From NCBI RefSeq assembly GCF_003334785.1, contig NZ_QOWV01000001.1: a stretch of DNA of 64,000 bases; one strand, written 5' to 3'. This document shows, piece by piece, positions 18,503-23,220 of the stretch; position 1 is the first letter of the stretch, and every line of letters starts with the position of its first letter. The position numbers and the translations under genes are program-made. Under the pieces are notes generated by a model, which had not been told where the DNA came from, did no database searches, and worked only from the letters and a program-made list of their open reading frames with translations. Source of the DNA: Escherichia coli. Lineage in GTDB: Bacteria; Pseudomonadota; Gammaproteobacteria; Enterobacterales; Enterobacteriaceae.

Positions 18503-21500
18503 TTACTCAACAGGTTGCGGACGCGCAGGAGCGGCAGAGGCATGATGTGTTGCCGTATGACCACCTGCGGCACCTTTACCTTCGAAGGCAAAAGTAGGGC
18601 GCTGCCAGTCACTGTGACGCGGTGCCTCCGGAACATATTCCGGTGCTGGAGCGCGCGTCATTGGCGCGGTAGCGTGGTTATGCTCAACGGTGACCTCAGG
18701 TTCGACCGCAGCTACCGTTTCAACTTCTGCTGCGACTTCAGCGACTACTGGCGCGGCAGGTTGAGCAACAACTTCAGGTTCAGCAACTACAACCTCAGCA
18801 GTTTCGACAACTTCTTCAATATCTGCCGTCTCTTCCTGCGGTTCAACCACCGGTTCTGCTTGTTCTGCAACTTCCTGGGCTACGGCAACATCAGACTCGG
18901 TAATCACCTGCGGCTGTTCAGTTACCGCGGCAGCGATCACTTCAGGATGCGTCGTTTCAACCACTTCCGGTTGCGGTTCGGCAACCTGAACGGGGGCTTC
19001 TACGACACCGGCCACTTCTTCAACAACTGGCGCGCTAACAACCGGTTCGATAGCGGCGGCGACAGGGACCTCAGTCACCATCGGCTGCACATGTACTTCT
19101 TCCTGTTCGCGCTGCTCTTCAACCTGTACATCTTGCGGACGTACAATTGGATAGCGGATCCAGACTTTGCCAGAGGCCAGTTCCGGAGACGCGCACGCTA
19201 CGGTCAACGGCATTGGCGACTGGGTTGGATAACGCTCGTCACGATAGCGACGACGACGCTGACCACTTACGCGCAGGTGACGAGGCGAGCGGCGAGAACG
19301 ACGCGGCATGCCACCGTTGTCACGGTTATCAGCATTGTTCTCTTCTTGCTGTTCTGGTGCAGTTTGCGCTACGACTGGCAGCGGGACTTTCACCAGTTCT
19401 GTGCGTGGAGCTGGCGCTTCCTGAACAATTGGTTCGGCAGCGACAGTTTCTTCAACCACCGGTGCGACTACCGCTTCTTCGGCTACGCTTTGCTCGTAAC
19501 GCACTTTCTGATTGAGCTGACGCTGTTTACGACGCGGCTGAACCGGACGTACACGTTCTTCCTGTTCGGTTTCCTGAACAGATTGCTCTTCAACATTCAG
19601 CGCCTTCGCTTCTTGTTGCGCCTGACGTTTATCATCATTACGGCGGCGGCTACGTTCACGACGCGGCGCTTGCTGCTCGTCGGCGGTACGCGCTTTTTCC
19701 GTTACCTCAGCCTGCTGACGGCTCTCACGCGTCTCGGCAGTCTGCTGCTGTGCCTGGCGACGATTACGACGGTTTTCTTCGCGATTATCGCTGCCTTCAG
19801 TACGTTCACTACGGGTGTCGCGGCGCTCATTACGGTCACGGCGGTTGTTCTGACGAGGCTTGCGACGATCCTGTTGACGTTCCGGTTTCGCTTCTGCTTT
19901 CGGTGCTGGTTGCTCGGTCGGTTTGGTTTCTTCACCACCGCTGAACAGCGCTTTCAGTGCGCCGAAGAAGCGGCTCAACAGCCCAGGTTGTGCAGGAGCT
20001 GCTGGTGTTGCCGGTGCAGCTTTCGGTGCTGGAGCTACAACAGGCGCGGCAGGTTCAGCTGGCGTTGGCGCAGGCGGCACATCCGGCATGGCAAAGGTTG
20101 CCAGCGCAGGTTGTTCCGGACGCTTACGTTCAGCGAACTCTTCTTCAGACGGCAGCGCCATCGCTTCTTCATGCAGCTTCGGCAGCATGTAGCTTAAGGT
20201 TGGGGTTTCTTCCCCTTTACGCACGCGCAGCACGTGGTAGTGCGGGGTTTCCATCTGATCGTTTGGCACAATTACACAGCGCACACCGTCCTGACGAGTT
20301 TCAATGGCATTTACCGCAGAACGTTTTTCATTCAGCAGGTAAGAAGCGATTGGCACAGGAACAATGGCGTGAACTTCCTGGGTGTTCTCTTTCAGCGCTT
20401 CTTCTTCGATCAGACGCAGAATAGAGAGCGACAGCGATTCGTTGTCACGCACGGTGCCAGTACCAGAACAACGCGGACAAACGTGATGACTGGATTCACC
20501 CAGTGATGGGCTCAGGCGCTGACGGGACATTTCCAGCAGGCCAAAGCGAGAAATATGGCTGATTTGAATACGCGCACGGTCCTGACGCACCGCTTCACGC
20601 AGACGGTTTTCTACCGCACGCTGGTGGCGTACTGGCGTCATGTCGATGAAGTCGATAACAATCAGGCCGCCGAGGTCACGCAGGCGCAGCTGACGAGCAA
20701 TCTCATCGGCAGCTTCGAGGTTAGTGTTAAACGCGGTTTCTTCGATATCGCCGCCGCGGGTCGCGCGTGCGGAGTTGATGTCGATGGCCGTTAACGCTTC
20801 GGTGCTGTCGATAACAATGGAACCACCAGACGGCAGACGAACTTCACGCTGGAAGGCGGACTCGATCTGTGACTCGATCTGGTAGTGGCTGAACAGCGGG
20901 ATCTCGCCGGTGTACAGTTTGATTTTGCTGCTGAAATCCGGGCGACCTAATGCAGCGATATGCTGACGTGCCAGTTCGAGCACTTTCGGGTTATCGATAA
21001 GGATTTCGCCGATGTCCTGACGTAAGTAATCGCGGAATGCGCGAACGATTACGTTGCTCTCCTGATGAATCAGGAACGGGGCCGGGCGGCTTTCAGCGGC
21101 TTTTTTGATGGCTTCCCAGTGTTTCAGACGGAAGCTTAAATCCCATTGCAGCGCCTCAGCAGATTTGCCGACGCCAGCGGTGCGCACGATAAGCCCCATG
21201 CCTTCCGGCAGTTCAAGGCTTGCCAGTGCTTCTTTTAATTCGGTACGGTCGTCGCCTTCGATACGGCGAGAAATGCCACCCGCGCGCGGGTTGTTCGGCA
21301 TCAGAACCAGATAGCTACCCGCCAGACTGATAAAGGTGGTTAATGCCGCGCCTTTGTTGCCGCGCTCTTCTTTATCGATCTGAACAATGACTTCCTGACC
21401 TTCACGCAACACATCTTTAATGTTGGGACGACCATGAGCACTGTAGTTAGCAGGGAAATATTCGCGGGCAATTTCTTTTAGTGGGAGGAAACCGTGACGT

Positions 21501-21688
21501 TCAGCGCCGTAATCAACAAAAGCAGCTTCCAGACTCGGTTCAATGCGGGTGATTTTACCTTTGTAGATGTTTGCCTTTTTCTGCTCGTGCCCTGGACTTT
21601 CGATATCCAGGTCATACAGACGCTGCCCATCTACAAGGGCAACGCGCAACTCTTCCTGCTGAGTTGCGTTGATTAACATTCTTTTCAT
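18503..21688 (-). CDS. rne: Ribonuclease E (1061 aa)
   Basis: [61 protein letters not shown]... (S1 and catalytic domains), followed by an Arg-rich and then acidic/Pro-rich low-complexity C-terminal half; 1061 aa as recalled for RNase E. Confidence 0.97.
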
Positions 21689-22050
21689 CGTAACTTACTC
21701 ATTATTCTTACATTGACGACTAAGCTGCGGGCAAAGTAACGCCTTTCCGGGTGTGAACCGATGGCCTCGTGTCTAGTCGCGTCGCCAACCTCACGGTTAT
21801 CGTCAGCTCAAAGAGGCGCAGAGTGTCGGTTGCCCGTTTTTCATGCGGAAAAACAGCGCAATTATCAAAGAAACAGACTGGGTATTACTCTCCAGAAATA
21901 TTTCCATCTACCGGTAAGGACTGCAACCCGCAGCCCGCTAACTGCCTGAAAGATCAATACGTCTTACGCCATTGCTGCGTGGATGATCGGTCGGGCAAAA
22001 TGGGTTATTCCGTAAAATTTCTTGTTTTAACAAGGATGGACACGGAAACG
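21689..22050 (-). promoter_or_regulatory. rne long 5' untranslated leader (autoregulatory region)
   Basis: 572-bp non-coding gap upstream of rne. That rne has a leader of roughly 360 nt whose stem-loops mediate RNase E autoregulation is established knowledge; boundaries here are approximate and structures were not folded. Confidence 0.55.
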
Positions 22051-22260
22051 GCCTCATTATTCCACTGCAAGCCTTGTTATAGCAAGATGACTTTTACCAT
22101 TTATCACCCGCTTACTCACAGTTTTTTCACTTCTTGCTGGTGATTGGTTTAATAACCATCAATAAAGTGATCACGCAGTGAAGTAATAAGGTGCAAAAGT
22201 AAATATAAGCATAGAAAAATGAGTGGCGCGAATCCTGTTGGCTAATTAGAATCGCCAACC

Positions 22261-23220
22261 ATGAAAACAGAGACTCCATCCGTAAAAATTGTTGCTATCA
22301 CCGCTGACGAAGCGGGGCAACGTATCGATAACTTTTTGCGTACCCAATTGAAAGGCGTACCAAAAAGTATGATTTACCGTATTTTGCGTAAAGGCGAAGT
22401 GCGGGTGAACAAAAAACGTATTAAGCCTGAATATAAACTCGAAGCGGGTGATGAGGTGCGTATTCCACCGGTTCGCGTTGCTGAGCGGGAAGAAGAGGCG
22501 GTTTCGCCACATCTGCAAAAGGTGGCGGCGCTGGCGGACGTCATCTTATATGAAGATGATCACATCCTGGTGCTGAATAAACCTTCCGGTACGGCGGTAC
22601 ATGGCGGCAGTGGTTTAAGCTTCGGCGTTATTGAAGGTTTGCGGGCGTTGCGCCCGGAAGCGCGGTTCCTTGAACTGGTTCATCGTCTTGACCGGGACAC
22701 CTCAGGTGTTTTGCTGGTAGCGAAAAAACGCTCGGCGTTGCGTTCTCTGCATGAGCAATTACGTGAAAAAGGGATGCAAAAAGATTACCTGGCGCTGGTG
22801 CGCGGTCAGTGGCAGTCGCATGTGAAGAGCGTTCAAGCACCGTTACTGAAAAATATTCTGCAAAGCGGCGAACGTATCGTGCGTGTGAGTCAGGAAGGCA
22901 AACCGTCGGAAACACGCTTTAAAGTGGAAGAACGCTATGCATTTGCCACCCTGGTGCGTTGTAGCCCGGTAACAGGGCGTACTCACCAGATCCGTGTGCA
23001 TACACAATATGCGGGTCATCCGATTGCCTTTGACGATCGCTACGGTGACCGTGAATTTGACAGGCAGCTCACTGAAGCAGGCACGGGATTAAATCGCCTG
23101 TTCCTGCACGCTGCAGCGTTGAAGTTTACTCATCCGGGGACCGGTGAGGTGATGCGTATCGAAGCTCCGATGGATGAAGGTTTGAAGCGTTGTTTGCAAA
23201 AGCTGCGTAACGCGCGCTAA
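22261..23220 (+). CDS. rluC: 23S rRNA pseudouridine synthase RluC (319 aa)
   Basis: MKTETPSVKIVAITADEAGQRIDNFLRTQLKGVPKSMIYRILRKGEVRVN... (S4 domain + RluA-family core); matches recalled RluC. Confidence 0.95.
   Translation: MKTETPSVKIVAITADEAGQRIDNFLRTQLKGVPKSMIYRILRKGEVRVNKKRIKPEYKLEAGDEVRIPPVRVAEREEEAVSPHLQKVAALADVILYEDDHILVLNKPSGTAVHGGSGLSFGVIEGLRALRPEARFLELVHRLDRDTSGVLLVAKKRSALRSLHEQLREKGMQKDYLALVRGQWQSHVKSVQAPLLKNILQSGERIVRVSQEGKPSETRFKVEERYAFATLVRCSPVTGRTHQIRVHTQYAGHPIAFDDRYGDREFDRQLTEAGTGLNRLFLHAAALKFTHPGTGEVMRIEAPMDEGLKRCLQKLRNAR

Follow-up and report, generated by a model that had tools for sequence, protein, structure and literature searches.

The rne–rluC gap of Escherichia coli as a regulatory region carrying the rne leader, with yceQ as a probable non-coding frame antisense to it

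The 572 bp that separate the divergent genes rne and rluC in Escherichia coli are best read as a densely packed regulatory region without a protein-coding gene, in which the plus-strand open reading frame (ORF) annotated as yceQ is an accidental open frame antisense to the leader of the rne mRNA. We give this explanation, taken as a whole, a probability of about 95%. Our analysis of a 64,000-nucleotide (nt) stretch of E. coli DNA (hereafter, the window) establishes a match to a known RNA family, a structure in that RNA that covaries across species, conservation above the neutral level and an ORF that lacks all of the coding signatures looked for. Both the rne leader and the non-coding nature of yceQ are already known, and our results on yceQ match those of Price et al. 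2016, Goodall et al. 2018 and Rousset et al. 2018.

Over the 7,001 bases compared (MG1655 1140000–1147000), the window agrees with E. coli K-12 MG1655 at every base, and window positions are obtained by subtracting 1122679 from MG1655 positions. rne occupies 18503–21688 on the minus strand and rluC 22261–23220 on the plus strand, with its ATG at 22261, leaving 21689–22260 between them. An earlier note on this DNA, made from the sequence alone, had called this gap the largest in the window and had expected it to encode an rne leader of roughly 360 nt. The first claim holds when the yceQ annotation is ignored, the next largest annotated gaps being 399 bp (ycfP–ndh), 333 bp and 294 bp, and the second is borne out by the RNA family match described below. 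The arrangement is a general one: among 80 rne loci fetched from other species, rluC lies upstream of rne in 77, and the two genes are divergent with a long gap of about 528–696 bp in 32 Enterobacterales loci. In the other gammaproteobacterial loci with rluC upstream (within L034–L081), the divergent order is kept with a gap of 346–924 bp, in Pasteurellaceae, Vibrionaceae, Shewanella, Alteromonadales and others.

Sequence change across the gap is much slower than at the fourfold degenerate sites of its neighbours. Identity to Escherichia albertii is 99% in the leader and 98% in the part from the rne promoter P1 to rluC, compared with 75% and 63% at the fourfold sites of rne and rluC, respectively. 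Against Citrobacter werkmanii, the corresponding values are 92% and 82% for the two parts of the gap and 67% and 51% for the fourfold sites. Slow evolution of this kind is expected where the level of the cell’s main RNA-decay enzyme is controlled.

An Rfam scan of 21000–23000 returned a single significant match, the RNase E 5′ untranslated region (UTR) element rne5 (RF00040), at 21713–22049 on the minus strand, with a score of 260.1 bits (E = 4.6e-82; gathering score, 180 bits) and covering model positions 1–333 of 333. This is the E. coli K-12 copy of the family itself, in the same place and with the same hp1, hp2 and hp3 architecture and conserved hp2 core, and nothing differs. When both strands of 21500–22500 were scanned for promoters, the sole promoter-like match was a sigma-70-like sequence on the minus strand at 22056–22085, rne P1, with a −35 hexamer TTGCTA (22085–22080), an 18-nt spacer, a TG and a −10 hexamer AATAAT (22061–22056). 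The rne5 match begins 6 nt downstream of this −10 hexamer, and its first base coincides with a +1 near 22049. Taken together, the predicted promoter and the start of the Rfam match make this the probable start of rne transcription from P1, which gives a leader of 361 nt, the length also described in the literature. From there, the transcript would fold into hp1, hp2 and a branched hp3, and its leader would end in the ribosome-binding site of rne.

Projected onto the E. coli leader, the Rfam structure places hp1 at leader nt 3–42 (22008–22047), hp2 at nt 52–108 (21942–21998; helices 3–6) and hp3 at nt 114–328 (21722–21936; helices 7–14), the last being a long-range stem around three sub-hairpins, all on the minus strand. 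The rne5 element, which makes up the structured part of the 5′ UTR, ends 24 nt before the rne ATG (21686–21688). These last 24 nt, the ribosome-binding region AAUAAUGAGUAAGUUACG at 21689–21712 (minus strand), are fully identical to E. coli (1.00) in 12 of the 14 aligned Enterobacteriaceae loci, with an identity of at least 0.92 in all 14. The minimum-free-energy fold of the leader reproduces hp1, hp2 and the sub-hairpins. Its energy of −103 kcal/mol is not unusual and is no lower than that of shuffled sequences (z = −0.66), so that the argument for structure rests on covariation and is evolutionary, not thermodynamic.

Covariation was assessed in 31 Enterobacterales leaders aligned with MAFFT, without fitting to structure, and the Rfam structure was projected through the E. 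coli row. Across the 84 consensus pairs, 90% of the cells show standard pairing, compared with 32–44% in controls in which the 3′ partners were slid by 1–3 columns. Changes on both sides of a pair are seen in 32 pairs and 147 cells; the slid controls have no more than 22 such pairs and 46 such cells, and none of 500 shuffles reaches the observed values. Both-side changes affect 8 of the 11 pairs in the hp1 region (helices 1 and 2), and examples in hp3 include pair 391/441 (UA in 18 sequences, CG in 13) and pair 136/464 (GC in 15, UA in 13). Judged from this alignment, the structure of the rne leader is kept by compensatory changes.

Of the 32 Enterobacterales loci, 30 have a full-length match to the element that exceeds the threshold, and every match ends 24–29 nt before the rne ATG. 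No match was seen in the other two, from Morganella and Proteus, or in the eight more distant loci that were scanned (L034–L041). In Morganella, Proteus and the distant lineages, rne may be preceded by a long leader whose structure is different and not yet catalogued. In Pluralibacter gergoviae and a Pseudocitrobacter metagenome-assembled genome, hp3 contains an imperfectly palindromic insertion of about 125 nt (at about 2157–2284 of locus L005 and 2160–2285 of L004, respectively). The insertion site is the same in both, between CCGGUAG and AUGGAA (columns 145–272 of alignment A1), and both leaders still score above the Rfam threshold. An ERIC element was considered for the identity of this insertion and set aside as unsupported when a distant blastn search against all E. 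coli genomes found nothing.

The core of hp2, GCAGCAAUGGCGUAAGACGU at 21959–21978 (minus strand), is invariant at 17 of its 20 positions across the 31 sequences (alignment columns 72–82, 84–89 and 91), and the other three positions are conserved in at least 90%. RNase E is reported to regulate its own synthesis through the rne leader (Jain and Belasco 1995; Diwa et al. 2000; Schuck et al. 2009). The latter two studies reportedly identify hp2 as the stem-loop by which RNase E is bound and through which it senses the leader. The conservation of the hp2 core is consistent with this feedback role, in which, following established work, RNase E would bind hp2 and hasten the decay of its own mRNA, providing homeostatic feedback.

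Conservation extends upstream of the leader in discrete blocks, seen in an alignment of 22050–22260 from 15 Enterobacteriaceae sequences. The −10 and −35 hexamers of P1 lie within blocks that are invariant across all 15. A double DnaA box, tTTATCACCCgcTTACTCACAg, composed of two closely spaced 9-mers resembling TTATNCACA, is present at 22100–22121, which is 51–72 bp upstream of the predicted P1 start and within the 3′ part of the yceQ ORF. Of the 14 other Enterobacteriaceae, 12 have the double box almost unchanged, and Cedecea and Klebsiella sp. BIGb0407 have degenerate copies. A ChIP-seq study published in 2024 described a new DnaA-bound site upstream of rne, with its peak at MG1655 1144772 (window 22093), and gave the motif (PMC11317965). 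The conservation of the boxes supports a real input of DnaA into the transcription of rne, or of rluC.

Two further blocks stand out in the same alignment: GATTGGTTTAATAACCA at about 22143–22160, and the near-invariant TAAATATAAGCATAGAAAAATGAGTGGCGCG (TAAATATAAGCATAGAAAAATGAGTGGCGC) at 22200–22230, a candidate upstream promoter of rne or site of rluC regulation. Two additional rne promoters, P2 and P3, were reportedly described by Ow et al. in 2002, and the two blocks may correspond to these promoters or to the site of a regulator. In the clinical isolate E. coli M217 (L082, NZ_AP019189.1), an IS1A element is inserted at window positions 22202–22210, with a 9-bp target duplication, AATATAAGC. 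The insertion splits the 22200–22230 block and parts the rluC promoter region from the whole rne side, and the strain is evidently viable despite it.

At the rluC end of the gap, a −10-like hexamer on the plus strand, TAGAAT (22247–22252), ends 8 nt before the rluC ATG. The sequence TTAGAATCG that contains this hexamer is near-invariant in the 15 Enterobacteriaceae sequences, as is the block TTAGAATCGCC at 22245–22256 that holds it. No Shine–Dalgarno sequence was found before the rluC ATG. rluC is counted among the few known leaderless genes of E. coli (PMC8794815), and the position of TAGAAT, together with the lack of a Shine–Dalgarno sequence, fits an mRNA that would begin at or beside the ATG.

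The plus strand of the gap contains two ORFs, exactly as the earlier note had described them: a 124-aa ORF with a GTG start at 21769–22143 ([31 protein letters not shown]), which runs antisense to the rne leader, P1 and the DnaA boxes, and a 62-aa ORF with an ATG start in another frame at 21761–21949. The note had also named yceQ as a hypothetical gene historically annotated at this position and had judged the longer ORF to be non-coding; on the evidence that follows, we agree on both counts and judge the shorter ORF to be non-coding as well. The MG1655 record lists yceQ (b1085) as a 106-aa ‘DUF2655 domain-containing protein’ at 21823–22143 (plus strand), in the frame of the 124-aa ORF and with a GTG start 54 nt downstream of the start of that ORF. 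PGAP annotates nothing under the ORF in any of 40 sampled complete E. coli genomes, the 124-aa ORF has no Pfam-A match even at E values up to 10, and no NCBIfam match was returned for the ORFs at E values up to 1. Although the name ‘DUF2655’ implies a Pfam family, neither Pfam-A nor NCBIfam in their current versions yields a match.

Within E. coli, the ORF region is at least 99% identical in 5,397 of 5,426 complete genomes. At this near-uniformity, intactness within the species cannot separate coding from non-coding sequence, and the variation is too sparse for dN/dS; other genera were compared instead. In the E. coli genome collection, five matches to the gap fall on plasmid-labelled records and a few genomes have two places, which may be misassemblies, duplications or genuine plasmid copies. 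Open frames of this size are easily come by in the window: its six frames hold 112 ORFs of at least 106 aa, compared with about 70 annotated coding sequences (CDS) of whatever length, which shows that spurious ORFs as long as yceQ are common. A 560-aa ORF at 18515–20197 (plus strand), antisense to the compositionally biased, repeat-rich C-terminal half of rne, illustrates how such long spurious ORFs come about in the window.

It is conceivable that yceQ is a real, evolutionarily young gene, confined to Escherichia apart from a shorter version in Salmonella and some Citrobacter, and expressed solely under conditions as yet unsampled. The length of the frame lends this some colour, as only about 1% of 5,000 dinucleotide shuffles of the gap yield an ORF of 124 aa or more, and the curated MG1655 record still lists yceQ as a CDS. 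The full 124-aa frame is kept unbroken by E. coli and E. albertii, a pattern that fits a young gene, and by no other sampled genus; the other 30 Enterobacterales loci have 2–15 frameshifting indels each, with in-frame stops in most, and the close relative C. werkmanii, at 90% DNA identity, has two +1 insertions and two stops in the ORF frame. The earlier note had proposed weighing the conservation of the frame against that of the RNA structure, and the outcome is that the frame is lost across genera where the RNA structure is kept. A protein database search recovered 32 clusters among 5.8 billion, all enterobacterial and 68–156 aa long, with query coverage of 28–98%, and several of the called homologues, E. 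coli and Shigella entries included, are mosaics that switch among the three E. coli frames.

An 82-codon version from the annotated start does stay open in Salmonella and C. amalonaticus, which again favours a young gene and allows its substitutions to be compared directly. Nei–Gojobori dN/dS against E. coli over these codons is 0.58 for Salmonella and 0.75 for C. amalonaticus, compared with 0.01 for rne. The other two frames of the same DNA give 0.71–1.42 (0.77 and 1.42 for Salmonella), and the ORF is indistinguishable from the +1 frame. Within the ORF, three of the four differences between E. albertii and E. coli are nonsynonymous, and dS against Salmonella is 0.22, a quarter of the 0.86 of rne. 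The ORF sequence is under constraint, though not at the level of a protein.

Substitutions in the ORF lack the third-position bias of a coding sequence, and the synonymous-biased pattern that the earlier note had named as a sign of a real gene is absent. Across 14 Enterobacteriaceae, divergence at codon positions 1, 2 and 3 is 0.187, 0.117 and 0.161 in the ORF, compared with 0.039, 0.005 and 0.363 in rne and 0.043, 0.016 and 0.411 in rluC; the first position is the most variable, which is not coding-like. A chi-square test on the codon-position counts (p ~2e-7) was discarded as not meaningful, the 14 sequences being related. Codon usage is likewise non-genic, at −0.18 per codon for the 124-aa ORF and −0.15 from the annotated start, compared with scores of at least +0.02 for all of the 28 long window genes used as reference (median, +0.37).

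No sigma-70-like promoter was found on the plus strand of 21500–22500. The earlier note’s remark that the longer ORF has no convincing Shine–Dalgarno sequence stands for the GTG at 21769, which has none, and fails for the annotated GTG at 21823, which has an SD-like GAGG (21813–21816) at a good spacing of 6 nt and so counts in favour of a gene. This GAGG is, however, complementary to CCUC, one conserved strand of a helix in the leader. Ribosome profiling, which the earlier note had put forward as a check, is available from published work: Price et al. report no reads for YceQ in three growth conditions and disruption of the ORF in some strains (10.1101/038851). In view of the whole, we regard a young yceQ gene as highly improbable. 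The same small chance attaches to a lineage-restricted de novo protein (Escherichia and, in part, Salmonella) that would be made from a rare antisense transcript of the rne leader in conditions so far unsampled, with the overprinted RNA structure dominating sequence evolution and masking selection at the protein level.

A small protein might instead be encoded by a shorter plus-strand ORF, the 62-aa ORF at 21761–21949 or a smaller one. ORFs of 62–65 aa with nearby starts do exist in several genera, although they occupy different frames in different genera. Divergence at the three codon positions of the 62-aa ORF is 0.126, 0.112 and 0.184, a slight third-position excess; its codon-usage score of −0.30 per codon is the lowest of the three ORFs tested. 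There is no Shine–Dalgarno sequence before the ATG at 21761 and no NCBIfam match for this ORF (the Pfam search covered the 124-aa ORF). We consider a small protein of this kind extremely unlikely.

The accidental-frame explanation also has to account for the apparent conservation of YceQ. This ‘conservation’, together with the small set of ‘DUF2655’ homologues, would mirror invariant RNA and DNA elements on the other strand. The two ‘peptide’ segments conserved best are complementary to leader elements, YVLRHCCV to the hp2 core and DCNPQPANC to the basal stem of hp3, and IYHPLTHS overlies the DnaA boxes. A young gene is not favoured by segments and an SD-like motif that are complements of conserved RNA helices. 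Other spurious ORFs are known to lie antisense to structured RNAs or conserved regulatory DNA, where DNA conserved for non-protein reasons has seeded a small family of ‘hypothetical proteins’; yceQ resembles these and has additionally gained a false ‘essential’ label.

That label can be traced to the overlap of yceQ with the promoter and leader of an essential gene. The Keio and PEC collections once counted yceQ as essential, and the reported essentiality would reflect deletions that remove the rne promoter and leader. Transposon insertions in yceQ are tolerated only in the orientation that is able to drive rne (Price et al., 10.1101/038851), the TraDIS study of Goodall et al. 2018 attributes the earlier ‘essential’ call to the promoter and leader of rne that lie within yceQ, and the CRISPRi study of Rousset et al. 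2018 gives the same explanation of the call, its strand effects being accounted for by rne.

These strand asymmetries also bear on whether the plus strand of the gap gives rise to an antisense RNA, itself non-coding, that would base-pair with the rne leader and so adjust the expression of RNase E, in the manner of an ‘excludon’. ExcludonFinder places rne–yceQ among 16 divergent ‘excludons’ in MG1655 RNA-sequencing data. This listing depends on the annotation of yceQ inside the rne 5′ UTR, and we found no statement of sense-strand yceQ transcription. The transposon and CRISPRi asymmetries are fully explained by transcription of rne, and the lack of a plus-strand sigma-70-like promoter in the scanned region weighs against an antisense RNA just as it does against a gene. 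We rate such an RNA as very unlikely, and retain the accidental frame antisense to the rne leader as the explanation of the ORF.

The finding brings no new biology in itself, and its value lies mainly in keeping annotation clean. The MG1655 reference record continues to show yceQ as a CDS, and the ORF still enters lists for recoding, of essential genes and of ‘excludons’. The comparative tests presented here provide independent, sequence-level support for retiring yceQ.
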